Assembly (NCBI GenBank): GCA_043814605.1
Contig: JBDRJV010000010.1
Location: 1,340-65,339, forward strand
Length of the DNA: 64,000 bases
Direction: 5' to 3'
Source of the DNA: Candidatus Omnitrophota bacterium
Lineage (GTDB): Bacteria > Omnitrophota > Gorgyraeia > B26-G9
Position numbers and translations under genes: made by a program
The notes under the pieces: generated by a model
The model's input: the letters and a program-made list of their open reading frames with translations, nothing else
Databases searched by the model: none
Told to the model about the DNA's origin: nothing
Shown here: in pieces, positions 9,553 through 37,719 of the stretch
How the letters are laid out: the number at the start of each line of letters is the position of its first letter
Position numbering within the stretch: the stretch's first letter is position 1

Positions 9553-10506
9553 ATGGATTATGAAAAAATTGCTTTTATATTTCCCGGCCAGGGAGCTCAA
9601 TATGTAGGGATGGGTAAGGATTTATATCAGAAATTTGAATCGGCCAAGACAATTTTTGAAAAATCTAACGAATGTTTAGGCTTTGACTTAAAATCTATTT
9701 GTTTTGAAGGCCCACAAGAAGAACTAACACAAAGTGCAATTTGTCAGCCGGCAATTCTTACGCTAAGTATTGCCGTGCTTGAGGTTTTAAAAGATAAGGA
9801 GGAATTTCAAGCTTTGATTCCTTATGCCTGTGCGGGTTTAAGTTTGGGTGAATATGCGGCATTAGTTGCTTGTGAAAGTTTAAAATTTGAGGATGCAGTT
9901 AGGTTAGTACATAAAAGAGGGCAATTTATGGATACAGCTTCAAAGGAAAATCCCGGAACAATGTCTTGTATCCTCGGATTGGATATTACTAAGACAAAGG
10001 AAATTTGTCAGAAAACTAAAGCAGAAATAGCTAATTTAAATTGCCCGGGTCAAATTGTACTCTCAGGTTCAGTGCAGGCGATTGCTCAAGCAAATACATT
10101 AGCGAATGAGCAAGGGGCAAAACGGGTTATTCCGCTTGATGTTAGCGGTCCTTTTCATTCCAGCCTGATGTCTTCTGCCGCAGCTAGTTTGAAAAAAGAG
10201 TTAGATAATGTAGAAATATCAAAGCCAAAAGTTATGTTTATACCTAATGTTACCGCACAGGAGACTGATGGTCCGGAACAAATCAGGCAATTACTAACCC
10301 AGCAGGTTGCGAGTACAACATACTGGGAAAAAAGTATTGGTAATTTAAGAAATCATAACATTAATACCTATCTGGAACTTGGTCCAGGAAAGGTGCTGAA
10401 AGGTCTTTTACAGCGAATTGACCGCAGCCTTGAAGTAATTAATCTGCAAAAAACTGCGGATTTTGATATTTTATTAGAAAAAATAATGGAGATACAGGGG
10501 GAATAA
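9553..10506 (+). CDS. fabD: malonyl-CoA:ACP transacylase
   Basis: FIFPGQGAQYVGMG and GLSLGEYAAL active-site serine motif. Confidence 0.9.
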   Translation: MDYEKIAFIFPGQGAQYVGMGKDLYQKFESAKTIFEKSNECLGFDLKSICFEGPQEELTQSAICQPAILTLSIAVLEVLKDKEEFQALIPYACAGLSLGEYAALVACESLKFEDAVRLVHKRGQFMDTASKENPGTMSCILGLDITKTKEICQKTKAEIANLNCPGQIVLSGSVQAIAQANTLANEQGAKRVIPLDVSGPFHSSLMSSAAASLKKELDNVEISKPKVMFIPNVTAQETDGPEQIRQLLTQQVASTTYWEKSIGNLRNHNINTYLELGPGKVLKGLLQRIDRSLEVINLQKTADFDILLEKIMEIQGE

Positions 10507-14217: not shown

Positions 14218-15012
14218 ATGAATATTATTGTTTGTATAAAACAAGTCCCGGATACAACTGATGTCCGGATTAATCCAGAGACAAATACTTTAATTAGAGA
14301 TGGAGTTCAATCAATTATTAACCCTTTTGATATGTATGCAATTGAAGAAGCGTTAAGGTTAAGGGAACGTTTTAAAGGAAAAGTTACGGTAATAACTATG
14401 GGGCCGCCGCAGGCGGAATCAGCTTTAAGGGAAGCGCTTTCATTAGGGGTTGATGAGGCAGTTTTATTATCAGATCGGGCATTTGCCGGAAGTGATACTT
14501 TAGCGACTAGTTATGCTTTAGCGCGGGCAATAGAAAAATTAGGCGGTGTAGATATAATTATCTGCGGTAAACAGGCGATTGATGGTGATACAGCTCAAGT
14601 TGGCCCAGGAATTTCTGTTTGGCTGGATATTCCGCAGGTTGCTTATGTTAAAAAGATTGAGGATGTTAGAGAAGAAAAAGGCAAAAATATTTTTCGGGTG
14701 CAAAGAATGGTTGAAGAAGGGTATGAAGTCTTGGATATCCCTGTACCGTGTCTTTTTACTGTGGTTAAAGAGATTAATGAACCCCGAATGCCTTCATTAA
14801 AAGGCATGATGCGGTCTAAAAAGGCAGAGATTATTAAATGGACAGCGGAAGATATTCAAGCCCAGGAAAAAAAGATTGGCTTGGATGGTTCTCCGACTCA
14901 AGTTGTGAAGATTTTCAGCCCTCCGGCTCGGGCCGGAGGTCAAAAGCTTATGGGAGAACCGGAAGATATTGCGGAAAAATTAGCAGAGTTGTTAAAAGAT
15001 AAAATTATTTAA
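14218..15012 (+). CDS. etfB: electron transfer flavoprotein beta subunit
   Basis: MNIIVCIKQVPDT start and EtfB fold sequence. Adjacent to ACAD and etfA. Confidence 0.85.
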   Translation: MNIIVCIKQVPDTTDVRINPETNTLIRDGVQSIINPFDMYAIEEALRLRERFKGKVTVITMGPPQAESALREALSLGVDEAVLLSDRAFAGSDTLATSYALARAIEKLGGVDIIICGKQAIDGDTAQVGPGISVWLDIPQVAYVKKIEDVREEKGKNIFRVQRMVEEGYEVLDIPVPCLFTVVKEINEPRMPSLKGMMRSKKAEIIKWTAEDIQAQEKKIGLDGSPTQVVKIFSPPARAGGQKLMGEPEDIAEKLAELLKDKII

Positions 15013-15045
15013 TATTTAAATTATTAAAAAAATAAAGAGAAAATT

Positions 15046-16230
15046 ATGGCAATTGAAGTTATTCAAGAAAAATGTGTTGGTTGTAAATTATGTTTAAAAT
15101 CATGCCCTTATGACGCAATTGATATAGTTAATAATGTGGCGGTAATTAATGATAAGTGTACGCTTTGCGGAGCATGTGTGGAGAGTTGTAAATTTGATGC
15201 TATTCTTTTAAGAAAACATGAAGAAGTTGAGATAAATCTTGATGAATACCAGGATGTTTGGGTTTTTGCCGAACAAAAAAAAGGGAAAATTCAGTCAGTA
15301 GTGTATGAACTCTTAGGTGAGGGTAAAAAACTTGCTCAAAAAAGGAAACAAAAATTAGCTGCGGTTTTGTTAGGAGATAAAGTTAAAGCCAGGGCAAAAG
15401 AGTTAATTGCCCGCGGTGCCGATAAAGTTTATTTACTGGAGCATCCGGCGCTTGTAAATTATCAGGCGGAAATTTATGCAAATGCATTAACAAAGATTAT
15501 TCAAGATTATAAGCCAGAAATTGTGTTAACCGGAGCCACAACCATTGGCCGTTCTGTAATTCCCCGGGTTGCGGTTGAGTTAAAAACAGGTCTTACTGCG
15601 GATTGTACGGGGTTAGATATTGATGAAGAAAGAGGGATGCTGCTGCAAACCCGTCCGGCTTTTGGCGGTAATATTATGGCCACAATTATTTGTCCCAGCC
15701 GACGGCCGCAAATGGCTACGGTAAGACATAAGGTGATGAAAGAGGCAGAAGTTGATAATAGCAATAAGGGAGAAGTTATTGAGATTGATGCGAAAAGTAT
15801 TAATTTTAAAGCCAAGGCTAGGTTTATTGACAGCATTGAAGAAATTGAGTCAACGATTAATATTGCGGAGGCAGATATAATTGTTTCCGGTGGCCGGGGA
15901 ATGGGTAATGCGGAGAATTTTAAACTACTGGAACAATTTGCAAAAACTATTGGCGCAGCTGTCGGTGCTTCACGGGCTGCTGTAGATAGCGGGTATATTC
16001 CTTATTCACATCAGGTCGGCCAAACCGGAAAAACAGTGTGTCCAAAAATTTATTTTGCCTGCGGAATTTCCGGGCAAATCCAGCATTTAGTAGGCATGCA
16101 ATCATCCGATATTATTGTTGCCATTAATAAGGATCCGGATGCGCCGATTTTTAAAGTTGCTACCTACGGCATTGTTGGCGATTTATTTACAATAATTCCA
16201 GTATTAATTAAAAAATTCCAGAAAAAATAA
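15046..16230 (+). CDS. etfA: electron transfer flavoprotein alpha subunit with N-terminal 2x[4Fe-4S] ferredoxin domain
   Basis: N-terminus has two CxxCxxCxxxCP motifs. The C-terminal part is an EtfA FAD-binding domain (…SGGRGMG…). Confidence 0.85.
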   Translation: MAIEVIQEKCVGCKLCLKSCPYDAIDIVNNVAVINDKCTLCGACVESCKFDAILLRKHEEVEINLDEYQDVWVFAEQKKGKIQSVVYELLGEGKKLAQKRKQKLAAVLLGDKVKARAKELIARGADKVYLLEHPALVNYQAEIYANALTKIIQDYKPEIVLTGATTIGRSVIPRVAVELKTGLTADCTGLDIDEERGMLLQTRPAFGGNIMATIICPSRRPQMATVRHKVMKEAEVDNSNKGEVIEIDAKSINFKAKARFIDSIEEIESTINIAEADIIVSGGRGMGNAENFKLLEQFAKTIGAAVGASRAAVDSGYIPYSHQVGQTGKTVCPKIYFACGISGQIQHLVGMQSSDIIVAINKDPDAPIFKVATYGIVGDLFTIIPVLIKKFQKK

Positions 16231-16368: not shown

Positions 16369-17070
16369 ATGTTCAATGGAAAAAAGCAAAAATTGCCGCA
16401 TTTCCCTATCCTGGTTATAATCGTTATTATAATCGTAATTTATATTCTAATGTATTTTCATCCGCATTATTTTACTGCCTACGATAAAAAATTAATTAAT
16501 GATTTTATCAATATTTTTTGGCTGTTTATTGGTTGTTATTTTATTGTGGATATCTTGAACAGAAAGTTAGTTTCTAGCTCTAAGGTTACGAATAAAATCC
16601 CGCAAAATTTTAAAAGGCACATATCCAAGGATAAAACTTTTAGTTTTTATTATCCAAAAAACTGGCAGTTGACCCGTGCTAAAGACCCTCTTTTATATAT
16701 ACAAGCTAAAGAACCGCATATTGAAAAAACAGATTTTTTAAAAAACTTTAATATTTCTTTTCAAAATATTACCGCTGCGGTTGATTTGGAGTTATTGTTT
16801 AAGATGGTTAAAGAAGGCGTATTATCTGGCTTGACAGATGCAAAATTAGAATACGAAACTATTTTTCATACAAGAAATTTATACGGAATTATTTATAAAA
16901 TTAATTACAAAAATAATAATGGATTAAAATTATGTTGCTATCAGATACCCATGACAAATAATTCTAAAACAAAAATGGTAATTCTAACTTTTACGGCTAA
17001 AGCTAAAGATTTTCCGCAAGCGAAATCTTTATTTGATACAATTGCCAACTTAATGGAAATTTCTAATTAA
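16369..17070 (+). CDS. hypothetical membrane protein
   Basis: Two N-terminal TM helices and no recognisable domain. Confidence 0.35.
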   Translation: MFNGKKQKLPHFPILVIIVIIIVIYILMYFHPHYFTAYDKKLINDFINIFWLFIGCYFIVDILNRKLVSSSKVTNKIPQNFKRHISKDKTFSFYYPKNWQLTRAKDPLLYIQAKEPHIEKTDFLKNFNISFQNITAAVDLELLFKMVKEGVLSGLTDAKLEYETIFHTRNLYGIIYKINYKNNNGLKLCCYQIPMTNNSKTKMVILTFTAKAKDFPQAKSLFDTIANLMEISN

Positions 17071-17556: not shown

Positions 17557-20500
17557 ATGTATTTTAAAAAGCTAGAACTTTATGGTTTCAAGTCTTTTGT
17601 TGAAAAAACCACGCTAATTTTTGAGCCCGGAGTAACAGCAATTGTTGGGCCTAATGGTACAGGAAAAAGTAATATTTCTGATGCCATAAAATGGGTTTTA
17701 GGTGAGCAGAGTGCAAAATCTATGCGTGGATCTAAAATGGAAGATGTTATATTTAACGGAACCGAATCCCAGCCTCCGGTTAATATGGCTGAAGTTTCCC
17801 TGACTCTTTCGAATAAAGAAAAACTCTTACCCATTGATTACGATGAAGTGATCATTACCCGCCGTCTTTACCGCTCGGGTGAAAGTGAATATTTACTGAA
17901 TAAAACTTTAGTTCGTTTAAAAGATGTCCATGAACTTTTAATGGGTACAGGAATTGGAACAGAAGCTTATTCATTACTGGAGCAGGGACGTATTGATGCA
18001 ATTTTGAGTTCAAAGCCAGAAGAAAGACGCGTTGTTTTTGAAGAAGCCAGTGGAATTACACGTTATAAAAAGAAAAAGAACGAAGCAATGCGTAAATTAG
18101 AGGCAACGGAAGAAAATCTTTTAAGAGTTAATGATATCGTTGTAGAAGTTAATCGTCAATTAGGGTCGATTCAAAGGCAAGTATCTAAAGCCCGGCGCTA
18201 TAAAGAACATTTTGAACAGTTGAAAACATTAGATACACAATATGCATATTGCGAATATAAAATTTTAGGAACGGAAAAAAATTCATTTCAAGAAAAAGAA
18301 AATAATTATCACCGCGAGCAAACAAATTTAGAAAATTATCTTAATGAATTAACCCAGTCATTTTCTCGCGTAAAAGAAACTCTTTCCCTGGTTGAGCAAG
18401 ATTACAACCAGCTAAACAATAAAGTAATTAGTGCCAGCACTCAAATCGAAAAAAATTCTGACAGGATAAACCTGAATAAGGAACGGATTGATGAATTTAC
18501 ACAACGGGTAAGCAGTTTAGGCCTGGACATTGAAAATGCTAATAAAAAAATCCGTGAATTAACACAGCAATTATCTTTATTGCAAACTAAAATTGATCTT
18601 TTTACAGAGGAAAAAAATTCAAAAGAACACAATTTAAACTTAAAGCAGGCAACAATTTCGGAAATTGAAGGAGTAATCAAAACTACGCACCAAGTGGTGG
18701 ATGAAAATCGTTTAAGTGCCGTAAAATTACTCTCAGAACATGCACAAATTAAAAACGAATTAGCAAAACTTTCCGCGAATATTCATAATGCACAGTCACG
18801 ATTATTGCGTTTGAACCAAGAAAAAGAGAAAACAAATCAGGAGCTTAAAATAATCAATTCTCAGCTTCAAGAAAAAGCCAGTGAATTGGATCAGCTAAAC
18901 GGAAAAGTTGATCACGAACAATTACAGGAGAATGATTTAAAACAAGCCTATAGTCAGCTTAAAGTACAAATTAAAGATTTAAAATTAAAAATTCAGGATG
19001 ATAAACAAACATTAGTGGGGTATCAATCTCAACTTGAAGTTTTAGAAAAATTAAATAAGGAGTATGAAGGTTTTTCAACGGCGGTAAAAACTTTAATGCG
19101 GAATAAAAAAGAAAACCCTGAAATTTTTAACGGGGTGCATGATGTTCTAGTTAATTTAATTGATGTAAACCCCGGTTTTGAATTAGCCGCAGAAACCGCA
19201 TTGGCAGAATATTTGCAGGCTGTTGTTGTCGATAATAAAGAAACTATAAATAGATTATATAATTTTATTTCAAATCAGAAATTAGGCCGTGTTAAATTTT
19301 TAATGCTTGATTCAATCGAAGATTGCCATTGCCAAGGGAATCAACAATCTGAAAAACAAGGGTTTAAAAAAATCAGCCAGACAATTAGCTGCCAGGATAA
19401 ATATAAAAAATTAATTAATTTTCTACTTAAAAACACATATTTAATCCCCGGGGAGAAAACTTCGGAATCTCAATTTTCTCAAGAAATTATTCCCGATACT
19501 GTTAGCGGTCCGCAGATTTCCGATGCGGGTATTGTTTTTTCCTGCGCGGCGGGGAATGCAAAAACAGTGGAAATAATCGGCGAATTTAATAATTGGGGTG
19601 CTTCAGAACGGATTAATTTAAATTTTTATTCGGATCGGATTTGGCGCACTCATATTAAATTGAAGGAGGGAACATATCGCTATAAATTTGTTATCGATAA
19701 CCAGGCGGTAACAGATCCGAATAATCCGTATAAAGAGGCAGACCAAAATGGTAACATAAATTCCGTAATTAAAATTATAACAGCTAATGTGAGTGGGGAA
19801 AAACAGGATTTGAATTTATGGGGCAAAGTTCAAACTAATGATCGGATTGTAAATATTAATGGAGAACTTTATTCTTCTGTTGAGTTTATTACTTCTTGTC
19901 TGACAGAGCAGGGGATTGGTTTAATTTCGCAAAAAGCCCGGATGCGGCAGTTAAAAATTGAATGTCAAAATCTGGAAAATGCAATAATTAGGGAAAAGCA
20001 GATAGACTCAGAAAAAGAGCAGCAAATGTTTAATCTGGAAACACAATTAAACCAATTGCATGAGCTGCTGCAGGAGGAGAAAATTGTTTTAGCAAATATA
20101 AATTCTGAAAAAGCTAATATTGAATCAACCAGAAAAAAACTTGATGATGAACTAGCCGTAATTGATATTGAGATAGATGAAACAATTCTTGATGAGAAAG
20201 AGTTAATAGAAAAAGAGTCTCAGAAGAAAGAAAGGCTTAAGGAAATTGATAAAGCAGCCGCCTTAAATGAACACGAAATGGCACGCGGACAAGAATTAAT
20301 CGCGATTAAAACTCAGGAAAGAGAAGAGCTTTTGATTATTATCTCTAAAATGAAAACTGAGTTTTCTCTTTTAAGCGAGCAGGAAGAAACATTAAATGCT
20401 AATTTTTCTATGTTGAAACAATCTCAAGCAGAACAGCAAAATAATGTTAATGAGTATTTAACATTAACTGAGGAACTGAAATTCAAGACAGAGGATTGTA

Positions 20501-21516
20501 CCCGTCAGGTGATTGAACTTGAAGCAAACCTGCAAGCCTTAGAACAAGAAAAAAAACAGACGGAAACAGCATTAAATCAAATATCAGAAAAAAGAGCTTC
20601 ACTGCTGCAGGAATTTGAAGAGACTCAAAATCAAATAAAACAAAAAGAAAATGAACTTAATATAACTAAAAACAATATACGAGATTTAGATGTTAAAAAG
20701 GTAGAATTAAATTATAAAATTGAGTATTTGGTAAATAGAATTAAGCAAGCTTATAAAGTAGATATGGAAAATTTCAATGATTCTGAAATAAAAATTGAGG
20801 AAGATATTGATTGGGATAAACAAAAAGAACAGATTGATATTTTAAAGAGTAAAATTGATCATATCGGTACAGTTAATTTGGCAGCAGTTGAGGAAGAAGA
20901 AGAGTTAAGAGAAAGAGTAGAATTTTTGACAAGTCAGAAAGACGATTTATTAAATGCTAAACAATCATTAATGCAGGCAATTCAAAAGATAAACCGGCAA
21001 ACAAAAAGCTTATTTTTGGAGACATTTGAAAAGAGTAAAGTTACTTTTAAAGAATATTTCAAACTTTTATTTAGCGGGGGAGATGCACAGCTGCATTTAA
21101 CGGAAGGCAAAGATGTTTTAGAAAGCGGCATAGAAATTATTGTCCGGCCTCCGGGGAAAAGGCTGCAGAATATTAGTTTGCTCTCAGGCGGAGAGAAAAC
21201 GCTTACGGCAATTGCATTATTATTTGCAATTTTTAAAATTAAGCCAACTCCTTTCTGTGTTTTAGATGAGATGGATGCGCCTTTAGATGAATCAAATATT
21301 GATAGATTTACACGAGTTTTACAGGAATTCTTAACAAGTTCTCAATTTATTATTATTACTCATAACAAGAAGACGATTGCTATGGCTGATGTTATGTATG
21401 GAGTAACTATGCAGCAGCCTGGGGTTTCGAAACTTGTATCCGTTAAATTTAGTGAGTATAAAGAAAATCAGCAGCTTGAACATGTTCACGAAATTAAAGA
21501 GGCGGCACTTACCTAA
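17557..21516 (+). CDS. smc: chromosome partition protein SMC with an inserted CBM48/AMPK-beta-like carbohydrate-binding domain in the hinge
   Basis: Walker A GPNGTGKSN, long coiled coils, and the LSGGEK signature with Walker B CVLDEMDAPLD. The hinge carries an extra roughly 85-aa segment (nt about 19528-19780) matching the CBM48/AMPK1_CBM consensus (FNNW...YRYKFVIDNQAVTDPNNP...GNINSVI). Confidence 0.9.
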   Translation: MYFKKLELYGFKSFVEKTTLIFEPGVTAIVGPNGTGKSNISDAIKWVLGEQSAKSMRGSKMEDVIFNGTESQPPVNMAEVSLTLSNKEKLLPIDYDEVIITRRLYRSGESEYLLNKTLVRLKDVHELLMGTGIGTEAYSLLEQGRIDAILSSKPEERRVVFEEASGITRYKKKKNEAMRKLEATEENLLRVNDIVVEVNRQLGSIQRQVSKARRYKEHFEQLKTLDTQYAYCEYKILGTEKNSFQEKENNYHREQTNLENYLNELTQSFSRVKETLSLVEQDYNQLNNKVISASTQIEKNSDRINLNKERIDEFTQRVSSLGLDIENANKKIRELTQQLSLLQTKIDLFTEEKNSKEHNLNLKQATISEIEGVIKTTHQVVDENRLSAVKLLSEHAQIKNELAKLSANIHNAQSRLLRLNQEKEKTNQELKIINSQLQEKASELDQLNGKVDHEQLQENDLKQAYSQLKVQIKDLKLKIQDDKQTLVGYQSQLEVLEKLNKEYEGFSTAVKTLMRNKKENPEIFNGVHDVLVNLIDVNPGFELAAETALAEYLQAVVVDNKETINRLYNFISNQKLGRVKFLMLDSIEDCHCQGNQQSEKQGFKKISQTISCQDKYKKLINFLLKNTYLIPGEKTSESQFSQEIIPDTVSGPQISDAGIVFSCAAGNAKTVEIIGEFNNWGASERINLNFYSDRIWRTHIKLKEGTYRYKFVIDNQAVTDPNNPYKEADQNGNINSVIKIITANVSGEKQDLNLWGKVQTNDRIVNINGELYSSVEFITSCLTEQGIGLISQKARMRQLKIECQNLENAIIREKQIDSEKEQQMFNLETQLNQLHELLQEEKIVLANINSEKANIESTRKKLDDELAVIDIEIDETILDEKELIEKESQKKERLKEIDKAAALNEHEMARGQELIAIKTQEREELLIIISKMKTEFSLLSEQEETLNANFSMLKQSQAEQQNNVNEYLTLTEELKFKTEDCTRQVIELEANLQALEQEKKQTETALNQISEKRASLLQEFEETQNQIKQKENELNITKNNIRDLDVKKVELNYKIEYLVNRIKQAYKVDMENFNDSEIKIEEDIDWDKQKEQIDILKSKIDHIGTVNLAAVEEEEELRERVEFLTSQKDDLLNAKQSLMQAIQKINRQTKSLFLETFEKSKVTFKEYFKLLFSGGDAQLHLTEGKDVLESGIEIIVRPPGKRLQNISLLSGGEKTLTAIALLFAIFKIKPTPFCVLDEMDAPLDESNIDRFTRVLQEFLTSSQFIIITHNKKTIAMADVMYGVTMQQPGVSKLVSVKFSEYKENQQLEHVHEIKEAALT

Positions 21517-21537: not shown

Positions 21538-22722
21538 TCACATTAATTCCCGGCTAAACATACAAACCCTGTTGCGGCCTGTATTTTTGGCAGCATAAAG
21601 CGCTTTATCGGCACAATTAACTAATTCTTCTTTAGTAGATGCATCTTGCGGAAAACTGGCAACTCCAATGCTGATTGTAATTCTTTTGGGGGTAGCCTTC
21701 TGATTGTGGCAGAAAGAATATGCAGCAACTAATTTTCTAATTCGCTCGGCTGAAGAATAAGCTTTTTCTTTATATGTTTCTGGTAAAATGATTGCAAATT
21801 CCTCGCCTCCATAACGGGTTACAGAATCAACTTCCCGGCATGAATTTTTGAGAATTTCTGCCAGATCTTTCAGTAAATCATCTCCGGCAATATGGCCTAA
21901 TGTATCATTAAAATCTTTAAAGTAATCAAGGTCCACCATGAGCAAACTTAAGTACCGATTAAACCGAGTGGCTCTTTTTACTTCTTCATTAATTTGATGC
22001 TGAAAATATCCGTAATTCCAAAGATTTGTAAGCCGGTCAGTATTAGACATAACCAATGCTTTTTCAAACTCTTGAGAATTCTCAATCGCTAAGCCGGCTT
22101 GATCGGCAAACATCGAAAGCTTCCAAATATCATCTGTTGTAATTGAACGTTTTGAATAAAAATTATCAACCAGCATTACTCCCACAACATGATTTTTAGC
22201 TAATAAAGGAACAGTAACAAAATATTCCATATTAAACAAAGACACAACCGGATCGTTTTTTTTAATTAAGAGTTTTTTTTCATCATTAATAATTTCAAAA
22301 GGGCTTTTATTTAAAACGGTTTGGGCTAAAATCCCGGAAGATAAGTTTATTGGTAGTGACATATTTTTGACGGTATTATTTAAATGCGAATCATTACTTC
22401 TGCCAAATTCTTGATAGGCATTGAGCAATTCATCCAAATTTTTACCGGATTTTTTTATAAATCGCCAAATATCCTGGGCATGATCCCCTGAATCCGGGCC
22501 GATGCCCATACGGCCTTCTAACTGATTAGTGTTTTCATTAACTAAAAAAACCATAGCTCGGTTAAAACCCAGCCCTTCGCCGGCGGTAACACTAGTTAGG
22601 ATAATGTAGAGAATTTCATCCAATCTCAGCGTTGAACGCATGGCATTACCAATTTCATAAAGCATTAATAGTTCCGCGCTGTATTGACTCTTAACTTTTG
22701 AGGGTATTGTTTTTCTTAACAT
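21538..22722 (-). CDS. GAF domain-containing diguanylate cyclase (GGDEF)
   Basis: N-terminal GAF-like region. C-terminal GGDEF domain with an RYGGEEF motif. Confidence 0.8.
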   Translation of the reverse strand: MLRKTIPSKVKSQYSAELLMLYEIGNAMRSTLRLDEILYIILTSVTAGEGLGFNRAMVFLVNENTNQLEGRMGIGPDSGDHAQDIWRFIKKSGKNLDELLNAYQEFGRSNDSHLNNTVKNMSLPINLSSGILAQTVLNKSPFEIINDEKKLLIKKNDPVVSLFNMEYFVTVPLLAKNHVVGVMLVDNFYSKRSITTDDIWKLSMFADQAGLAIENSQEFEKALVMSNTDRLTNLWNYGYFQHQINEEVKRATRFNRYLSLLMVDLDYFKDFNDTLGHIAGDDLLKDLAEILKNSCREVDSVTRYGGEEFAIILPETYKEKAYSSAERIRKLVAAYSFCHNQKATPKRITISIGVASFPQDASTKEELVNCADKALYAAKNTGRNRVCMFSRELM

Positions 22723-27965: not shown

Positions 27966-29669
27966 ATGGGGAGGGGAAAAGAAATGGTTAGCAAAAATAT
28001 AAAACAATGTTTGCATTCAAGAAAAATACTGATTTTTTTAGTTATTTTTGGGGTTTTATTTTTTTATGTAAGACCTTTATTTTCTCAAGAAACAGGTTTT
28101 CTTAAAACTAAAATTAAAACTGTTTCCGGGCCAAAACTTAATGAATCGGAACGGGTTAAACAAGTACTGCGCAACCTGGAGATTCCGGAAGATATGGGTT
28201 TTATTAAAGAAATCCATGTACCCAGTAATCCCAACGACCAGTTAATTATCACGATTCAGGATCTGCATTGCCATTATCAGGCGCAAAAAAATATTTGTAA
28301 AGTTATTGACTACCTGACGACAACCTACGGTTTAAAAGTAATCAGTGTTGAAGGCGGCAGCGGTAAAATTGATACTACTTTTTATAAGGAGCTTCCGGAT
28401 GAGAAAATTAAGGAACAGGTAGCCGATTATTTTTTAAAAGAGGCGAGGATTAATGGTACGGAGTATTTTGCGATAACCACAAATAAAGACATTGCTCTTT
28501 ACGGAGCAGAAGATGACAAATATTACAATAAAAATCTGGATGCGTTTCTCAAGGCTCTGCCAAACCGTGAGAGGATTTTAGAAAATATTTCTGTCTTAGA
28601 AAATGATTTAAGTATTCTTAAGAATAAAATATATAACAAAAAACTCAAAGCATTAGATGATTATATTGTTGCTTATGAAAATGGAGAAGTAGATTTTGAG
28701 AATTATATTACGTATATCTGTAAACTCTACGATTCGGATAAACTTGCCCGTGAATTTCCACAGGTTAATCAGCTTTATGAGAGTTTACAGATTAAAACTA
28801 AAGTAGATTTAAAAAAAGCAGAAGAGCAGCGCAAGGAGCTGATTGATTATTTAAGTAAAAATTTAACCCGGTATGCTCTGGAAGAATTTTTAAAAGCGAC
28901 ATTTGAATTCAAGGCAAAAAATCTAGACAGCTTAAGTTATCATAATACACTGGAAAAACTTTATCGTGAAATGCAGAATAAGTCTCAGGTTTTAGCCAAG
29001 GCTTGGCCGCAATTACATTGTTATATTCAATATTTAAATAAACATGAGACATTAGATAAATTTGAACTTTTCCACCAGCTGGATAAATTTGTAGAAAGGA
29101 TTAAGAACAATATTTATACCAGCTATACGCAGAAAACATTAGACCATAATTTAAAAGTTATTCGCTTGGCCCGTAACTTGTTTTCAACTAAATTATTAAA
29201 CCGGGATATGCAAGCCATAACTAAATACCGCAGTGAATTTAAAGCCAAAGATATGAAGAAGTTTATTAAAAGCCAGATGCAGCGGTTAAAGTTAGAGTTA
29301 CACATACCTTCCGATGAAGATCTAGAGGTGATGGAAAAAACTTTGCCGGATTTAGAGGATTTTTATGAATATGCGCACAAACGTAATAATATTTTGGCTA
29401 ATAATACGGTTCAAGCTATGGATGCAGAAAAAGAAAATATCGCGATTTTAGTTACCGGAGGGTTTCATACAGACGGGATCACAGATTATTTTAAAGATAA
29501 ACGAATTTCTTATGTGGTGATTGCCCCAAAAATTGATGAATTAGATCAAGATGATACCCGTTATATTAATGCTTTAAAAGGCAAAAAAACACCGTTTGAG
29601 GAAATGATTGAAAACGAAGCAACCCCCTTAAAAGATACATATTTTGAGGAAAATGAAAATAAAAATTAA
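27966..29669 (+). CDS. hypothetical signal-anchored protein (likely start 27984 with GGAGGGG RBS)
   Basis: N-terminal TM helix. Mostly charged/helical and no recognised domain. Strong SD GGGGAGGGG lies 8 nt before ATG 27984. Confidence 0.5.
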   Translation: MGRGKEMVSKNIKQCLHSRKILIFLVIFGVLFFYVRPLFSQETGFLKTKIKTVSGPKLNESERVKQVLRNLEIPEDMGFIKEIHVPSNPNDQLIITIQDLHCHYQAQKNICKVIDYLTTTYGLKVISVEGGSGKIDTTFYKELPDEKIKEQVADYFLKEARINGTEYFAITTNKDIALYGAEDDKYYNKNLDAFLKALPNRERILENISVLENDLSILKNKIYNKKLKALDDYIVAYENGEVDFENYITYICKLYDSDKLAREFPQVNQLYESLQIKTKVDLKKAEEQRKELIDYLSKNLTRYALEEFLKATFEFKAKNLDSLSYHNTLEKLYREMQNKSQVLAKAWPQLHCYIQYLNKHETLDKFELFHQLDKFVERIKNNIYTSYTQKTLDHNLKVIRLARNLFSTKLLNRDMQAITKYRSEFKAKDMKKFIKSQMQRLKLELHIPSDEDLEVMEKTLPDLEDFYEYAHKRNNILANNTVQAMDAEKENIAILVTGGFHTDGITDYFKDKRISYVVIAPKIDELDQDDTRYINALKGKKTPFEEMIENEATPLKDTYFEENENKN

Positions 29670-29831: not shown

Positions 29832-32800
29832 GTGAAAAATTTTAATAGGAAAAAATTCAGTTTAGGGATTAAAATTATTGCCATTGTGCTTATTCAAGCA
29901 TTCTTGGTTTTAGATTTTGCTCAGGCGGCGCAAGGAGATTTTTCTTATCCTGCACAAAAGGAACAGCTGAGTACTTTGGCTCCGCAAATGCAGCTGGATG
30001 CGAAAGCTGTACAAAATATATTCACTACAGCTAATCAATCCCCTCAAAAAACACAGGATTTTGTGCAAACCAAACCTAAGGATTCTAATCCTCAAACTAA
30101 AGGATCTGGGCCTAGAAGAATTATAGCCAGTACAATATTATTTTTGTATTTAACGTTTCCATTTTTAAATACCCTGCCATTTTTTAATGCTTTGGTTTCA
30201 ATTGCTGCACCTGTTCAACAGACTCAGGCTGTGAGCATTACTGCCCCGGAAATGCCCCAAGAATTAGCACAATTAATTTCTAAAGTATCTATTGAAAAAC
30301 CTACAGATATCCAAGGAAGTCCAACTGAAGAGATTAAGGTAATTAAGACCAATATTTATGAAGGCAGGATGGAGTTTACCAATTTAAAGGCCAGAGAAAG
30401 AGTAGAACAAATTAATAAAGCTATAAATATAATTTGGCAGAAATATCCGCAATTGTGGCAATCAGATGATTATATTACAGAAAGAATCAAGGCTACGAAT
30501 AATTCTCCAGAATCAATTGCATTAGGGCATGCACTGCTTTTAGAGAAACTTATTAAGCATGAGAATGTAAAAGAGAAAAATGCTCTTTTATATATTGGTA
30601 ATGTTGATCAGGGAGTAGCGGAAACTCGGGGTTCACAACTGAGATGGTTTGGCAGGCCGCTCATAAAAATCAGTAAAGACTATATTGATAATCCATTCTG
30701 GATTGCATTTATGCTAGAGCATGAGAATATTCATGCTAAAGAAGGTATAATTCAAAGATTGATTCTTTATAATATTCTTAATTTTGCTAAATTCGTTTTT
30801 TCCTTTGCTATACCGGAAGAAAAAGAAGCTTATAAAGCAGAAGCAAGATTTACTAAGATTTTTGGCATAGAACCATTAGAAGAGGGGGGAATGTTTATTC
30901 ATGAATTAGATGTAATGCCACCATATTATCACCCAAAAACAGAAATTCTAATTAAGTTTTTAATTTTTAATTTTTTTACAACAATTTTACCTTTATATTT
31001 CATCGGGCGTTTAATTATAAGATATTTTCAAAATAGAACTGGTAACCAACGTAACACATATACAGAAAACAAGAGGGGTACTGGGTTAAGTTCAGGCGCA
31101 AGAAAAAGTTCACTAAATATTGGTTCTGGAAGAAGAAACGTAAGAAAAAACGTAAGAAAAAACCGTTATCGCTCACTTATATTACTTCCTTTTCTAAAAT
31201 TGTTTGAAGTTATTGACCCGGCAAACTCATTGGCTGCAGATTGGCTGAGTGATTTAACCTCAAATCCTTTGTTTGGTATTAATTTAGCAGGAGTTGTTTT
31301 TGGCATCGCAGCAATAATAATTATTATTACGCTTAGAAAAATAAGGGAATTAAGGGATTTAGATGATACTTTGCGATTTAATTTTAAGGGATTAGCTGAT
31401 TATTGGCATGAATTTGTCTTGAACAAATTGAAATTAATTAATGAAAATAAGATTATGGATAATTTAAAAAGGTATAAAGATAATCCAACTTTGGAAATCG
31501 TCCGGGGATTTATCTTAGAAACAATTACTAAATTTAAGGAAAATCGCCAGTTAATTCGTTATCATAATGAATTTCATATTAATGAAATGCTTGATTTTTT
31601 TGAAAAAATAACAATAAATAATAATTTTAAGTTTTTAAGAGGGAATAGATCGGAAACTTTAATCAAAGCCGCAATTTATATGCATGATGCCGGATATTTC
31701 AGAAAACTTAAAGAAAAAGAGTTTATCCGCATAGGCCATGAAGCAAAAAGTAATGAAATGTTCCGTGATTTTCAGGTTTACTTAAAGAATTTTATACTTG
31801 ATCCCATTGACCAAAATGATTTTCAATTATTTTCTCAACTGGAATTAAAGGCAATCGAACATATGGTAGATATGACTGCGCTTAAAACCGGGCAAGAAGA
31901 AAAAGAATTTGACCAGGAAGTCGCAGATTACACCCAGGCCTATAATCTATTAATGAAATATCAAAGCCCGGGAGCTATTAATCCTCAGGATTTAGAAACT
32001 TTAAAAAATAATAATTTCATCGTTAATAAATTTCAAGATAATGGAGTATTATTAGCAGACTTAAATAATCTTGAGCACCGCCAATTAATTCTGGATGCAA
32101 TCTTAGGCGGTGAAATATTAGCTATGGCAGATATTTATGGCCAGGATAAAAGTTATATTTTCCGTATTCCTTATCTGCAAAAGGAATTTAATGAAGACAG
32201 AAACCGGGGCGATCAAACCAGTCCAGCAGCAGAAACAATGCTTGAGCAGGTTGCCGGAAGTTATGGATTCCATCAGTTTGCTGAGAAAATAAAGCTGAAT
32301 AAATTAAAATTAATTTTACCTTATTTGAATTCGACTCCAGAATTAATTAAAGCCAGACAGGAAACATTAAAAATAAGCAGGAACATTGATGCCGCAATTA
32401 ATGAAATAAAATCAGGAGAATATATACAAGCGGATATTGATGTATTATTGGATTTTGTTAATCAAGGAAAAAAAGATTTTGGTTATGATCAGAATTTCAG
32501 CCAAGAGCTTTTTGATGAAATTAATGAATTTGTTCAAAAAGGGAAAAGGCAAAAAGAACAAGGTATTGTTCAAGATTTAAATTTTTTTCAGGCCGTAGAA
32601 AAGTCAGAACTATATCAGCTTATTGATCAAAAAGGAAAAGATCTTTTACTTAAAAGTTTAAAAGTTAAATTCGTTGATCCCCCTAAATCACCTGAAGAGG
32701 AACAAAACGGGGCAGGAATTATTATTAACCAGGGAGACTCGATTTCCCAGACCGGAGCGTATATTCTTTTATCCGGCTATGTAAAAGTTAAAAAAGATGG

Positions 32801-34925
32801 TTATCGAGTCAATACTTTAGTCCCCGGTGCTATTTTTGGGGAAATCGCGGTGATTAACGGATATGACCGGACTTCTACAGTACAAGTACCGCATAATGTA
32901 AAAGTGCCGGTAAATCTTGTAGAGATTCCTGCAGCAATATTAAAACAGCTTTATTCAGAAAATATCAGATTAAGAGAGTTTTTAGATAAAACGATTAATA
33001 CCAGATTACAGGAACTCGAAGAAATTGAAAAGTTTGATAAAACTAACCGGGAAATAAAAACAGATGAAATACTGAAAATTATATATGGACAAGATCATAT
33101 TATTAAAAGAAATGAAAATGCCCGAGAAATGGCGCAGCGTATAATAGATCGAGCTCCGGTATCAGAAGTTATGGAAAAACTGGAAAAGATATCACAAGGC
33201 CAAGCTCAGGAAATATCAAATGAGGAATTAAATTTAATAATCGCCTTATTGAATTCCCAAAATCCTTTGGGGCAAATTATTAATAAAGGGGAAAAAGGAG
33301 ATAAAATAGTTGCGTTACAGGTACCGGGGATATCTGAAACAAGTCTGGGAATTAAGCAATTAAATGATATTTTAAAGTATCAGTTGAATACACGTTTGAT
33401 TCAAATTAAAAGAGATATTATTCTTAAGTTAATGCAGGAGCAGGGATTAATTAATGATCAGCAGGGTAGAATTTATAGTACTTATAAAGAAGATGTTTTT
33501 TTAATTAACAAAAATATTCTGTTAACCCAAGCTAAACTTGAAGATTTACGCAAAGAATTTAGAAAAAGAATATTTGAGTTTATAAAAGAAAATTCTATCT
33601 TTAGGGATAGGCTTATTAGTAACAACATTACCCTTGAAGAAATAGCGCAGTTTCCCCTTGATTTTGGGGTAAGCGAAATAAAAGAAGCTTCTGCTCAAGG
33701 CCGGCTCTTAGCGGATATTAATGCGCATCAGGCAGTCACTATTTCTAAACTGAATAATTCTGCATTTTTTTCAGAACAAGATTATAAAAATGTAATTGCT
33801 AAAATTAATATTTTAAGAAATCAGCTTGTTTTTAAAACTTCAGTTTTTGACCAGGAAAATGGAGCCTATTTCTTGAAAAATAATATTAGTGATGCCTTAA
33901 GGAAAAATATGTTATGGAGCGGTCTTCCTCTAAACATTAAAGAGTATTTTAATAATTTAGAAGTTAATTATGATCTGGCCCGGGAATATTTTTCTTATTT
34001 AAATATCCATGATTACATAAAAAAATGGTCGATTGATGGTGATTTTGAATCGACTGCTGATGATGATGTTTTTGAATCGGCTTATGAAAGAGCAGAAAAG
34101 ATACTGGATATTACAAACCAACTTAAAACTATCCAAAAAAATCAAGATCCCAAGTTATTGTTTAGCCAGGCAAAGGAGTATTTAGAACGGGAAACCAAGG
34201 TCCAGGAGTTTACTTCAGCCCATGCTTTTTATAATTTTGGTTTAAAAGCTAAACATCCGGTTATAATCACACTGGATATTGAAAAAATGGGATTAATGAA
34301 TATAAAATCTTTTGAAATAGATTTGCAAAAAATCAGTAATGCTATTTCTGAAGGGGATCAGGAAAAACTGCAAATGCTTTGGATGAGTGCCGCTGATGAT
34401 GTGACTGAAAAGTTGGTTAAAACAATGCAAATCGTGAAAAAATTTATAATTAAAAAATTCGATTTAGAACAATATCAAATAGTCGAAGAAATGGGCGGGG
34501 ATGAATTCAGCTTAATTATTGATAAGAAAATTGAAACTCAAGAGTTAGCGCATTTGCTGAATGTTATTAAAAATTATGTGAGTCAGGAAATGGATATTGG
34601 GGTTCGCATGGCGGCAACGCAAGCCATAGAACAATTGCGGAAAGATTTTGAAAATAGAGGCAAAATACGGGATCCTTTAGCCTTTGCTGTAGGAATGAAT
34701 ACTTCCGATGAAATGATTGAGATAATTAAACAAAATTATGAAAATAATGGAGAGTATGATAAAGTAATTATTCAGAATGAAAAAGGCGACATGATTATAT
34801 ATGAAAACGTACTATTAGAACAGCCTGTAACAACAGTAGATTTAGATATCCTTGAAGCAATTATTGGGGACATGCACCCCAATGACATATTAAAAGATTT
34901 GGATTTAGTGGGCCAGGCTATTTAA
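29832..34925 (+). CDS. giant multidomain membrane signalling protein: conserved N-terminal module + TM segments + HD phosphohydrolase + cNMP-binding + GGDEF
   Basis: HD motifs (HNEFHINE...YMHDAGY). cNMP-binding consensus (GAIFGEIAVINGYDRTSTV). C-terminal GGDEF (EEMGGDEFSLI). Several TM helices and a basic R/K-rich linker. Confidence 0.7.
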   Translation: MKNFNRKKFSLGIKIIAIVLIQAFLVLDFAQAAQGDFSYPAQKEQLSTLAPQMQLDAKAVQNIFTTANQSPQKTQDFVQTKPKDSNPQTKGSGPRRIIASTILFLYLTFPFLNTLPFFNALVSIAAPVQQTQAVSITAPEMPQELAQLISKVSIEKPTDIQGSPTEEIKVIKTNIYEGRMEFTNLKARERVEQINKAINIIWQKYPQLWQSDDYITERIKATNNSPESIALGHALLLEKLIKHENVKEKNALLYIGNVDQGVAETRGSQLRWFGRPLIKISKDYIDNPFWIAFMLEHENIHAKEGIIQRLILYNILNFAKFVFSFAIPEEKEAYKAEARFTKIFGIEPLEEGGMFIHELDVMPPYYHPKTEILIKFLIFNFFTTILPLYFIGRLIIRYFQNRTGNQRNTYTENKRGTGLSSGARKSSLNIGSGRRNVRKNVRKNRYRSLILLPFLKLFEVIDPANSLAADWLSDLTSNPLFGINLAGVVFGIAAIIIIITLRKIRELRDLDDTLRFNFKGLADYWHEFVLNKLKLINENKIMDNLKRYKDNPTLEIVRGFILETITKFKENRQLIRYHNEFHINEMLDFFEKITINNNFKFLRGNRSETLIKAAIYMHDAGYFRKLKEKEFIRIGHEAKSNEMFRDFQVYLKNFILDPIDQNDFQLFSQLELKAIEHMVDMTALKTGQEEKEFDQEVADYTQAYNLLMKYQSPGAINPQDLETLKNNNFIVNKFQDNGVLLADLNNLEHRQLILDAILGGEILAMADIYGQDKSYIFRIPYLQKEFNEDRNRGDQTSPAAETMLEQVAGSYGFHQFAEKIKLNKLKLILPYLNSTPELIKARQETLKISRNIDAAINEIKSGEYIQADIDVLLDFVNQGKKDFGYDQNFSQELFDEINEFVQKGKRQKEQGIVQDLNFFQAVEKSELYQLIDQKGKDLLLKSLKVKFVDPPKSPEEEQNGAGIIINQGDSISQTGAYILLSGYVKVKKDGYRVNTLVPGAIFGEIAVINGYDRTSTVQVPHNVKVPVNLVEIPAAILKQLYSENIRLREFLDKTINTRLQELEEIEKFDKTNREIKTDEILKIIYGQDHIIKRNENAREMAQRIIDRAPVSEVMEKLEKISQGQAQEISNEELNLIIALLNSQNPLGQIINKGEKGDKIVALQVPGISETSLGIKQLNDILKYQLNTRLIQIKRDIILKLMQEQGLINDQQGRIYSTYKEDVFLINKNILLTQAKLEDLRKEFRKRIFEFIKENSIFRDRLISNNITLEEIAQFPLDFGVSEIKEASAQGRLLADINAHQAVTISKLNNSAFFSEQDYKNVIAKINILRNQLVFKTSVFDQENGAYFLKNNISDALRKNMLWSGLPLNIKEYFNNLEVNYDLAREYFSYLNIHDYIKKWSIDGDFESTADDDVFESAYERAEKILDITNQLKTIQKNQDPKLLFSQAKEYLERETKVQEFTSAHAFYNFGLKAKHPVIITLDIEKMGLMNIKSFEIDLQKISNAISEGDQEKLQMLWMSAADDVTEKLVKTMQIVKKFIIKKFDLEQYQIVEEMGGDEFSLIIDKKIETQELAHLLNVIKNYVSQEMDIGVRMAATQAIEQLRKDFENRGKIRDPLAFAVGMNTSDEMIEIIKQNYENNGEYDKVIIQNEKGDMIIYENVLLEQPVTTVDLDILEAIIGDMHPNDILKDLDLVGQAI

Positions 34926-35160: not shown

Positions 35161-37719
35161 ATGAAGCCAAAAAACACAAAATTTCAAAAAATAATTGCAT
35201 TTTTATTAATGCAGACATTTCTAATCATAACTTGTTTGCCAGTGCCGGGATATGCGGGGAAGAATACTCAAGAAAAAAAGGTAAATCAGGTTAATTTAGA
35301 TAATCTTTCTCCCGTGCTTGGCTTAAATAGTGAAACAATAACAAATGTATTCAAACAAATTTCTCTTGAGCAGCGAGATAAAACAAAGGATATCATAACA
35401 AAAGGTGCATTAAGGCCATTGTTTTTAAGAGAAGATAATTTATTGATTTATGATAAGGCAAGTAAACAAGCAATGCTGGGGTTTTTTTTGGGTAAGGGAG
35501 TGGTCTTATTAAGAAAGATTTCTCTAAAATATTATAAGCCGGCAGTCAGAAGAATTGATGGATGTGCTTTGATAACTTTAAAAACAGAAAAAGGAATAGG
35601 ACTAATCCACTTTTTCCCGGATAATACTTTTAAAAGAGTTAATCATGTTATAAAGGCTCTGGTAAAAGAGCTAAAACAGCAAATAAATGCAGATTCTCAT
35701 GCAAAGGTTGAAATAATTTTTTCTAAGCTAACTTTTGAAAACAATGACGTAAGTTATGCGCCTTTTGAACAAACACTGATTCAGGGGTTTAAAAGAGAGT
35801 TAGGCATCAAGGATATTAAAATAATAATTGAAGATGGAATAATCGGCAATCTCGAATTTGATATGGAGCAGGAAAAATGGGATTATGGAATAGCTGAGAT
35901 TAAAGTAAAACAGAAGAAGTTTTTTTATAACCGTAATTTATTAATAAAATTAAAGGCTATATTAAAAATAATTAATGATATTTATGAAAAAATAGTATAT
36001 TTTCCCGCTCTATTTATAAGATCTAAAGATGAAAAAAGATCATCAGCTCTAAAACCGTTATTACTTGTTACGAAAGGCTCATATGATGAGCCCTCAATCA
36101 GGCGTAGCTATAGTGATTTAAATAATATTACTTTTCGGGGAAAAATTGATGAAGTTATTTTACAATTTGCAAAAAAATATCCCGGCCGGAAAAATAAGAT
36201 AAATATTCTGCTTATCGGCGGAGGAAGATTGCAGGATGAACAGCTTAAAGTGCATATCGAGGCTGATTTAAAGATCCCAAAGAACAAGGTGAATGTATTT
36301 TCATACGCAAATGAAAACTTAGCTTTAATGAGAGATAAAAATCAGTTAACGATTGGCGATATTGATAATGGGTTGCCATATAATAGTGATTTTTTTCATC
36401 TGGCTATTGTTTCTGATGTTGTCGCTCCTTATTTTAAGAATAAATTTGCAGCCTTAAGACAGATACAAAGGACATTAACTAATGACGGAAAAGCTTTTGT
36501 TGCTGATTTTGGATTATTTTCATTCGTGGATAAACGGGGGAAATTCCATAATCTAAATCTCCTAATGTTTAAAACAATCAGTCAAAATAAATATGAAAGA
36601 GATGATGGTAAAGATTCAGTCATCTTAAGAAATATAATATTTGGTAAAACTCCCCGGATTCCTGAGTTTAAATTAAAAGAACCTATCCCGTTTAAGTTCG
36701 GAAAAGCTCTAAAATATGAAAGCAGATATGAATGGAATCAAACACTGGCTGATTTATTAGATAAAATATCCAGCCAAAATAGATTTTTTTCATTTTTTAC
36801 ATTTAGTATATCTATCTTTAGCTTTTCATTTTGGGGAAAAGAAATAAACATTAATATTCCCGCAGGATATATTTATACTGGCCTGGGATTTTTTATTGCT
36901 GCGCTTGCTTTTAAATTTCTCCCTAAAATCATAATAGGTATTAACTCAATAAAAAATTCTTTTAATCCGCAAAGAAGGGAAATGCTTGAGAAAATTTTTA
37001 ACCCTTATTTATTATTAGGAATAATGCTTATTCCTTTTATCAGTTTAAAAGGGGATTCTAATTTACAACATACAACCAGGTCTTTAGTTGTAACTCTTTT
37101 ACTCAAAATAGCATTAACGCGAGAAACTTCTGATGATGTTTTTGAACGTGATAAGCTGATTATTAATTTAACCTATACCCAGGCATGGCTGGTTTTTGAT
37201 GAAATAAATAATAAAGAAATCGCGGGGATTGCTTGTGATATTTATACAAAAGCGGCAAATGCAGTTTTAACTGTAAGAGATGGATATTATCCGGAAACTG
37301 ACTTTTATGATTATCAGTTATTTAGAGTTATTGCGGCAAAAATTAATGGCGAAGACTGGGTTTCTCTAATGCAGGAGTTTGCGGATGAAAATAATAAAAA
37401 CAAAAAAAGACCTATGCAAAATGAAGATGCGCAAGATGGTGATACAGGAATTATCATTGCTGCGGGTATTGGCTGGAATAATAATGGGAAAATTCCTCTT
37501 AATGCTTATAAACGTAAGGTGCAACCAATTTCTAAATACCCAGTCCTGAAAGAATATTTTGATGAAAATAGCCAAACAGTTCAAAATTCTGTTCCGGAAG
37601 GAAGGGAAAAACCCGAAAAATTACAGGCAAATTTACCTTATATCGTTAATATATCAAAGGCAGGAAAAGCATTATTGCAAACAATAGAAAAACACAGTTT
37701 AATTGAACAATCAATTTAA
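35161..37719 (+). CDS. large membrane protein with conserved N-terminal module (paralog family), central Rossmann-like region, multiple TM helices
   Basis: N-terminus is homologous to those of 29832, 38072 and 61699. TM cluster at aa about 530-620. No confident catalytic domain. Confidence 0.5.
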   Translation: MKPKNTKFQKIIAFLLMQTFLIITCLPVPGYAGKNTQEKKVNQVNLDNLSPVLGLNSETITNVFKQISLEQRDKTKDIITKGALRPLFLREDNLLIYDKASKQAMLGFFLGKGVVLLRKISLKYYKPAVRRIDGCALITLKTEKGIGLIHFFPDNTFKRVNHVIKALVKELKQQINADSHAKVEIIFSKLTFENNDVSYAPFEQTLIQGFKRELGIKDIKIIIEDGIIGNLEFDMEQEKWDYGIAEIKVKQKKFFYNRNLLIKLKAILKIINDIYEKIVYFPALFIRSKDEKRSSALKPLLLVTKGSYDEPSIRRSYSDLNNITFRGKIDEVILQFAKKYPGRKNKINILLIGGGRLQDEQLKVHIEADLKIPKNKVNVFSYANENLALMRDKNQLTIGDIDNGLPYNSDFFHLAIVSDVVAPYFKNKFAALRQIQRTLTNDGKAFVADFGLFSFVDKRGKFHNLNLLMFKTISQNKYERDDGKDSVILRNIIFGKTPRIPEFKLKEPIPFKFGKALKYESRYEWNQTLADLLDKISSQNRFFSFFTFSISIFSFSFWGKEININIPAGYIYTGLGFFIAALAFKFLPKIIIGINSIKNSFNPQRREMLEKIFNPYLLLGIMLIPFISLKGDSNLQHTTRSLVVTLLLKIALTRETSDDVFERDKLIINLTYTQAWLVFDEINNKEIAGIACDIYTKAANAVLTVRDGYYPETDFYDYQLFRVIAAKINGEDWVSLMQEFADENNKNKKRPMQNEDAQDGDTGIIIAAGIGWNNNGKIPLNAYKRKVQPISKYPVLKEYFDENSQTVQNSVPEGREKPEKLQANLPYIVNISKAGKALLQTIEKHSLIEQSI

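Follow-up and report, generated by a model that had tools for sequence, protein, structure and literature searches.

The window analysed here, a 64,000-nucleotide stretch of contig JBDRJV010000010.1 from a metagenome-assembled genome (MAG) of a Candidatus Omnitrophota bacterium, carries a housekeeping smc gene (17557 to 21516, + strand; all positions are counted from the first nucleotide of the window) whose product holds, inside its hinge domain, a carbohydrate-binding module (CBM) assigned by profile and fold to the CBM48/AMPK1_CBM group. The gene is a single continuous open reading frame (ORF) for 1319 residues. In its product we found a match of 980 bits to the NCBIfam model TIGR02168 (SMC_prok_B; cut-off, 567 bits), made up of two aligned stretches with a break after residue 630, and Pfam matches to SMC_N (residues 3 to 1291), SMC_hinge (524 to 630), and AMPK1_CBM. 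The ABC-type head motifs all lie at their expected positions, with Walker A at residues 31 to 38, the LSGGE signature at 1209 to 1213, Walker B at 1235 to 1240, and the H-loop at 1268 to 1270, and the Q-loop is intact as well. The ORF encodes a full SMC with intact ATPase motifs, and an identical protein from a Candidatus Omnitrophota MAG is present in NCBI under the label SMC. As had been noted in the original prediction, which a model made from the letters of the window and the translations of its ORFs, the protein is longer than a typical SMC: the median for other Omnitrophota SMCs is 1197 residues, and the full-length SMCs that bear the insert have 1278 to 1336.

The N-terminal and middle part of the hinge (residues 495 to 631; 19039 to 19449, + strand) includes the SMC_hinge match, which scores 77 bits, aligns with residues 10 to 121 of the Thermotoga maritima hinge (1gxl), and ends in the strand LLKNTYLI. 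AlphaFold2 models it with predicted local distance difference test (pLDDT) scores of 87 to 96, except in a loop at residues 592 to 599. The original prediction was right to place the extra domain inside the hinge and set the end of the first hinge half about 40 residues too early, at LDSIED (residue 589). Beyond that point the hinge continues through a variable loop (residues 590 to 603) and then a conserved helix-strand unit (residues 604 to 631, GFKKISQTISCQDKYKKLINFLLKNTYLIP), which is modelled with pLDDT scores above 90, aligns with the T. maritima hinge, and ends in YKKLINFLLKNTYLIP. The extra material is residues 632 to 760, about 129 in all: a 26-residue linker, an 84-residue CBM, and a 19-residue linker. 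The first linker (residues 632 to 657; 19450 to 19527, + strand) is disordered and unconserved, with pLDDT below 50 at residues 633 to 649. The beta-sandwich of CBM48/AMPK-beta type follows (residues 658 to 741; 19528 to 19779, + strand); the codon of Gly658 starts at nucleotide 19528, and the translation contains the peptide that the original prediction gave for the insert. The second linker (residues 742 to 760; 19780 to 19836, + strand) has pLDDT below 50 at residues 744 to 752 and includes a low-confidence remnant of a hinge helix at residues 752 to 757. The hinge picks up again at NDRIVNINGELYSS, where its C-terminal strands and the start of the returning coiled coil (residues 761 to 800; 19837 to 19956, + strand) align with residues 157 to 211 of 1gxl. 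Canonical hinges have just a short helix-loop at this site (DLxDAxxLL), which residues 632 to 760 replace, and the insert enters the C-terminal half of the hinge at a surface loop that joins the strands LLKNTYLI and RIVNINGE.

The assignment of the insert to CBM48/AMPK1_CBM, first suggested by its consensus residues, holds for both Pfam models that cover this group. PF16561 (AMPK1_CBM) matches residues 666 to 741 with 55.3 bits in the whole protein (cut-off, 26.8) and gives 60.2 bits (E value, 2.3e-16) on the 84-residue stretch alone, while PF02922 (CBM_48) scores 25 to 28 bits (cut-off, 22.4); the nearest solved structures by sequence are the CBMs of AMPK beta1 and beta2 (E value, 2e-7). Folded alone by AlphaFold2, the insert is modelled as an eight-strand beta-sandwich with a pLDDT of 92.4, in agreement with the independent beta-sandwich that had been proposed, and a Foldseek search of the PDB places it nearest to 1z0m, 4yef, and 4yee, at template modelling (TM) scores of 0.88 to 0.90 and root mean square deviations of 1.3 to 1.7 Å, with further matches to the CBM48 domains of SEX4 and feruloyl esterase. 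When the alignment of hinge and insert was folded together, the mean pLDDT was 80.9, with values above 90 in the hinge core, 85 to 92 in the insert, and below 50 in both linkers. In this joint model the hinge matches 5h69 and 1gxl (E values of 4e-11 to 4e-9 over 309 to 326 columns that span the insert on both sides), and the AMPK beta CBMs are matched independently of the SMC hinges. The predicted TM score of the joint model is 0.59 despite the high local pLDDT, a combination that fits two rigid bodies lacking a fixed mutual orientation. By profile and predicted fold, the insert belongs to CBM48/AMPK1_CBM with a match that chance cannot explain; it is modelled as an autonomous beta-sandwich on flexible linkers, and the modelled hinge fold around it is intact.

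The neighbours of the gene are those of a housekeeping smc. Upstream lie etfB and etfA (ferredoxin domain; 14218 to 16230, + strand), and downstream, in convergent orientation, a GAF-GGDEF diguanylate cyclase (21538 to 22722, - strand). The order acyl-CoA dehydrogenase (acd), etfB, etfA, smc, convergent GGDEF is found in the window, beside the CBM-bearing orthologue P0016, beside its CBM-less sister P0019, and beside P0054, a canonical Omnitrophota SMC at the same type of locus with just 42% identity. Because this order is conserved, the insert-bearing gene is taken to be the housekeeping smc orthologue and not a specialised paralogue; orthology was judged from the locus, and genome coverage here is the 64-kb window. 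Between etfA and smc the window also has an ORF of 233 residues (16369 to 17070) with a hydrophobic N-terminal stretch and without a Pfam match; the P0016 locus lacks it, and beside P0019 its place is taken by a 253-residue protein and a DUF4139 protein. Farther downstream, three consecutive + strand ORFs of 567, 852, and 824 residues (27966 to 29669, 35161 to 37719, and 38072 to 40546) have no Pfam match at an E value of 1e-5 and are followed by a GH116-family glycosidase (40649 to 42811), and an ORF of 1697 residues (29832 to 34925) has a cyclic-nucleotide-binding domain at residues 963 to 1043 as its sole Pfam match.

Distribution, conservation, and history of the insert

The original prediction had pointed to SMCs of related lineages as a check on the insert, and we surveyed the best 120 homologues of the window SMC. 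PF16561 is carried by P0001 to P0018, P0022, P0024, and P0026 to P0028, about 23 clusters of SMCs with 48 to 63% identity to the window protein, and in all of them the CBM sits at the same hinge loop. These orthologues were recovered independently, from NCBI, JGI, ENA, and Logan assemblies whose contigs reach 507 kb. Their source databases label them just "SMC" or "AAA family ATPase," and the precomputed Pfam annotation already shows the CBM.

This distribution bears on the view that the insert is an assembly chimera, a mis-joined frame, or an intein-like mobile insertion. The G+C content, 0.37 to 0.39 across the insert and 0.30 to 0.33 just upstream, speaks for such an origin. Against it stand the continuous reading frame and the recurrence of the same site and architecture in the independent assemblies; the original prediction had named failure of the profile thresholds and an assembly chimera as the outcomes that would overturn its claim, and the insert passes the Pfam thresholds and is shared by about 23 independent orthologues. 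An intein is opposed by the Pfam results, since no Hint, intein, or endonuclease match was found in the window SMC at E values up to 1, and the junctions of the insert are unconserved linkers, whereas an intein has nucleophilic residues there. True intein-bearing SMCs do exist in Omnitrophota (P0073, P0100, P0108, and P0118, of about 1760 residues), and they show PF14528 (LAGLIDADG_3) and PF14890 (Intein_splicing). The orthologue survey and the absent intein domains rule these origins out, and we give them a negligible probability.

We aligned 23 insert-bearing SMCs with 10 insert-less relatives and computed region-wise conservation on the 21 full-length CBM-bearing proteins. Mean pairwise identity is 87 to 91% in the heads and 54% in the arms, both conserved in length, and 39 to 61% in the parts of the hinge, also conserved in length, if the loop at residues 591 to 603 (15%) is excluded. 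The CBM has a mean pairwise identity of 47% and a fixed length of 83 to 84 residues, compared with 7% and 5 to 33 residues for the first linker and 11% and 14 to 26 residues for the second. By these alignments, the CBM is about as conserved as the hinge itself. Its 47% identity without length drift, set against the 7 to 11% of the linkers, argues for purifying selection on a folded domain, with the linkers as mere spacers.

A neighbour-joining tree (1129 columns, insert region removed, 100 bootstraps) recovers the CBM subclade as monophyletic with 100% bootstrap support. The deepest branches of the subclade (P0024, P0022/P0028, and P0026) all bear the CBM, and their branching order has 40 to 70% support. 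The insert-less P0019 is nested in the CBM-bearing group with 95 to 100% support, and the insert-less P0020/P0021/P0025 and P0023 are nested there too, at nodes with 40 to 70% support. The tree suggests one early gain and one well-supported loss of the CBM, and two further losses probably occurred in the subclade. In the hinge loop of P0019 (L010, 7001 to 10612) we also saw the sequence NSQIEQ where the last CBM strand of its sisters reads NSVIEV; this may, as a weak hint, be a deletion scar.

The insert could in principle be a tolerated passenger, a captured CBM gene with little or no function, now in decay in the lineage of the window and deleted from others. Hinge loops tolerate insertions (PMC5344682), the CBM has been lost repeatedly in the clade, the window copy has an Ala in place of a Trp equivalent to AMPK W133 (described below), and the 90- to 150-residue free-standing CBM proteins common in Omnitrophota are possible donors. 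We consider this reading rather improbable: the length of the domain is fixed, free of insertions and deletions, across lineages that share only 48 to 63% SMC identity, and its 47% identity, against 7 to 11% in the linkers, includes 11 invariant residues.

Outside SMCs, the CBM subfamily is widespread. When a profile of the insert alignment was run against 1.84 billion representatives, the best 150 of 17,617 matches were all multi-repeat CBM proteins. Tandem arrays of the subfamily (P0121 to P0270) include many proteins of about 480 residues with four copies and one of 1812 residues with 18, and free-standing proteins of 90 to 150 residues are common (P0287 to P0406), several of them from Omnitrophota. 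These free-standing proteins are plausible donors of the insert. Searched against genome contigs, the hinge and insert alignment gave only CBM-only loci among the matches listed (at least 600), which were drawn by the pattern GDFNxW; the sole extended match in that scan, L029 from Rubripirellula, proved to be GlgB and no SMC.

The hinge of this subclade also differs from canonical hinges at a second place. The hinge-interface motif of T. maritima, GRGAITGG, aligns with SVEFITSC in the window SMC (motif site at 19837 to 19920, residues 761 to 788), and the subclade relatives read ISKPAxEQ at this glycine-rich site. The conserved glycine-rich motif is missing in all 28 subclade members examined (28/28), with or without the CBM, and is kept as GFITGG in four of five other Omnitrophota SMCs. 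The hinge dimer interface may have been remodelled in the subclade.

The ligand site and CBM-bearing ParA proteins

In AMPK beta1, residues W100, K126, W133, L146, and T148 touch the carbohydrate (McBride et al. 2009; PMC2642990), and mutation of any of them markedly lowers glycogen binding (PMC2642990). We mapped the ligand site by aligning the SMC inserts to AMPK beta2. The equivalents of W100, which stacks on the sugar (Trp680; codon at 19594 to 19596, + strand), K126 (Lys710; 19684 to 19686, + strand), and N150 (Asn735; 19759 to 19761, + strand) are present in 21 of 21 SMC inserts and account for three of the domain's 11 invariant columns. The W133 position is Trp in 20 of the 21, and the sole exception is the window protein, which reads IDNQAV with Ala717 (19705 to 19707, + strand); its GCG codon is two changes from TGG. 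At the positions of W100, K126, W133, L146, T148, and N150, the window SMC thus has Trp, Lys, Ala, Asn, Asn, and Asn. The equivalents of W100, K126, W133, and N150 are, in the alignment, the most conserved CBM positions across the clade, and the canonical glucan site looks preserved at clade level. In the window protein, affinity is probably reduced or specificity altered, and because its second stacking Trp is replaced by Ala717, this copy is the least certain glucan binder of the set.

A search with the hinge and insert profile, whose matches were all about as long as the query, also brought up Omnitrophota ParA/Soj-type ATPases of 361 to 365 residues in eleven clusters (within P0275 to P0286), each with a C-terminal AMPK1_CBM; locus L012 has a further example. 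JGI annotates these ParA-CBM proteins as "chromosome partitioning protein." They have the deviant Walker A sequence KGGCGKT, and their best NCBIfam match is ParA_partition with 115 bits, under the cut-off of 180. The genes for ParA-CBM proteins of 361 to 372 residues lie at 10001 to 11098 of L001, 3091 to 4179 of L009, 3179 to 4297 of L012, 4445 to 5530 of L078, and 6001 to 7095 of L079. In one lineage they are part of a conserved cluster that runs Alginate_exp, GH57, a 190-residue unknown protein, ParA-CBM, a 108-residue protein, and a protein of 139 or 146 residues, where the 108-residue protein has a faint match to MamF_MmsF. The GH57, 190-residue protein, and ParA-CBM order is found in two diverged members of the lineage, including P0284 (44% identity). 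Enzymes of the GH57 family act on alpha-glucans, and the ParA-CBM cluster may serve to position glycogen granules in the manner of a ParA system. The compared contig records of ParA-CBM and SMC-CBM have no assembly accession in common, which speaks neither for nor against shared genomes.

In full-text literature searches, no publication came up that connects CBM48 with the SMC hinge, or CBM48 or glycogen with ParA, nor anything relevant on chromosome segregation in Omnitrophota. An SMC with a hinge-inserted CBM48 is a conserved and unexpected architecture of uncultured bacteria that appears in no paper we found, which agrees with the original prediction, whose author knew of no description of it.

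Possible roles and comparison with known systems

We propose that the CBM tethers the SMC hinge to cytoplasmic glycogen, a reading in which glycogen binding is predicted from the conserved site residues and to which we give a probability of about 0.45. By the tree, the housekeeping Smc of one Omnitrophota clade acquired the CBM once and early. With each CBM borne on two flexible linkers (of about 5 to 33 residues), an Smc dimer would display two CBMs at its hinge end, opposite the heads, where they would bind cytoplasmic alpha-glucan. The hinge end of DNA-loaded Smc-ScpAB would thereby be tied to glycogen granules, which would stay with the nucleoid and be partitioned along with the chromosome rather than inherited asymmetrically. 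Glycogen of E. coli forms a condensate at the old pole, pushes the nucleoid aside, and has an asymmetric inheritance (PMC12706056), and glycogen synthesis is encoded by Omnitrophota MAGs (PMC8542988). The ParA-CBM fusions found next to GH57 genes lend the tether some indirect backing. The Bacillus subtilis Smc hinge accepts loop insertions and even replacement by the Rad50 zinc hook (PMC5344682), so the insertion need not harm Smc function.

Several observations weigh against the glycogen tether. Neither the 64-kb window nor the surroundings of the SMC orthologues showed a glycogen-metabolism gene, and GH57 is not adjacent to the ParA-CBM genes at L012 and L078. At the ligand site, the equivalents of L146 and T148 vary among the SMC inserts, and the window copy has Ala at the position of W133, whose mutation in AMPK markedly reduces glycogen binding (PMC2642990). 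Among the ParA-CBM copies examined, four of four have Asp at the N150 position and three of four have Arg at the K126 position. The domain is dispensable, since the clade has lost it in at least one case and probably in two or three. Glucan binding by a bacterial AMPK1_CBM of this subfamily is itself a prediction.

The departures at the ligand site, namely, the missing W133 of the window protein, the variable L146 and T148 positions, and the K126 and N150 differences of the ParA copies, also count toward an explanation that we regard as unlikely and still worth weighing: the CBM may be a protein-protein or other non-glucan module that recruits ParB, ScpAB, a membrane or polar anchor, or a small adaptor, with the same partner recruited by the ParA-CBM proteins too. 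The CBM of AMPK makes a docking contact with the kinase domain as well, the same domain is found on two different nucleoid ATPases that possibly share a partner, and the small unknown proteins encoded downstream of the ParA-CBM genes are candidate adaptors. Set against a protein-binding role, surface conservation peaks at precisely those residues with which AMPK contacts glucan, the nearest structures are glucan-bound CBMs, one ParA-CBM lineage adjoins GH57, and no candidate partner has emerged so far.

By analogy with AMPK, the CBM might alternatively act as a glycogen sensor whose occupancy modulates DNA binding or the opening of hinge or arms, which would couple chromosome compaction or loading to the carbon-reserve state. 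In AMPK, it is the CBM that turns the kinase into a glycogen sensor (PMC2642990); the SMC inserts conserve the glucan-contact residues, and the hinge and hinge-proximal arm are reported to bind DNA and to be where the rod opens (PMC4306524; bioRxiv 10.1101/495820). We find this very unlikely: the linkers are long, disordered, unconserved, and variable in length and are ill-suited to carry an allosteric signal, and the models predict no conserved interface between CBM and hinge (predicted TM score of 0.59, with high local pLDDT).

If the glycogen tether is right, the ParA-CBM proteins could form a second, ParA-type arm of the coupling between nucleoid and granules. A dedicated glycogen-chromosome coupling in Omnitrophota, in which Smc would display two CBMs at its hinge tip and ParA-CBM, encoded in one lineage next to GH57, would spread granules over the nucleoid, is a further and doubtful extension. 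It would be the first example both of an SMC complex whose cargo is something other than DNA and of active glycogen partitioning. SMC complexes are viewed as pure DNA motors, with the hinge as a module for dimerisation and DNA contact, and a selected ligand-binding domain at the hinge tip would mean that an SMC can be linked to a non-DNA cell structure. Together, SMC-CBM and ParA-CBM point to a way, testable and not yet described, in which bacteria may position or partition glycogen, and the insert marks a natural permissive site for engineering of the SMC hinge.

In its head-arm-hinge-arm-head layout, ATPase motifs, hinge fold, and locus, the window SMC is like canonical Smc of the Smc-ScpAB complex (1GXL from T. 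maritima and 5H69 from Geobacillus stearothermophilus), from which it differs by its approximately 129 extra residues and, as does its whole subclade, by the missing glycine motif. The intein-containing SMCs present in other Omnitrophota likewise have an extra domain inside the SMC reading frame; however, inteins carry Hint and LAGLIDADG domains and are spliced out, whereas the insert described here has neither and stays in the protein.

Other nucleoid-coupled systems offer the same proposed logic, in which chromosomes or nucleoid ATPases partition inclusions, and it is to these and to CBM48-bearing targeting proteins that the window SMC comes nearest in proposed function. PhaM on polyhydroxybutyrate (PHB) granules and McdAB on carboxysomes are examples of nucleoid-coupled positioning. 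For polyphosphate granules of Caulobacter, chromosome-coupled inheritance is described (PMC3806658). SMCs and CBMs are not known to take part in any of these systems, and no such system is known for glycogen.

Closer to the insert itself, the CBMs of AMPK and SNF1 beta subunits (1Z0M, 4YEF, and 4YEE) have the same fold and 31 to 35% identity, and among the SMC inserts the W100, K126, and N150 residues are invariant and W133 is kept in 20 of 21. The host here, in contrast, is an SMC rather than a kinase scaffold, L146 and T148 are not conserved, and glucan binding is predicted. Plant PTST proteins, which combine a coiled coil with a CBM48, reportedly target partners to starch granules; there, as proposed here, a CBM48 on a coiled-coil protein localises to an alpha-glucan granule, but PTST acts in a eukaryotic plastid, has neither an ATPase nor a link to DNA, and is non-homologous outside the CBM. 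The Omnitrophota ParA-CBM proteins carry the same domain family on a nucleoid-type ATPase in the same phylum, and they differ from the SMCs in the way the CBM is joined to its host, as a terminal fusion in ParA and as an internal insertion in SMC.

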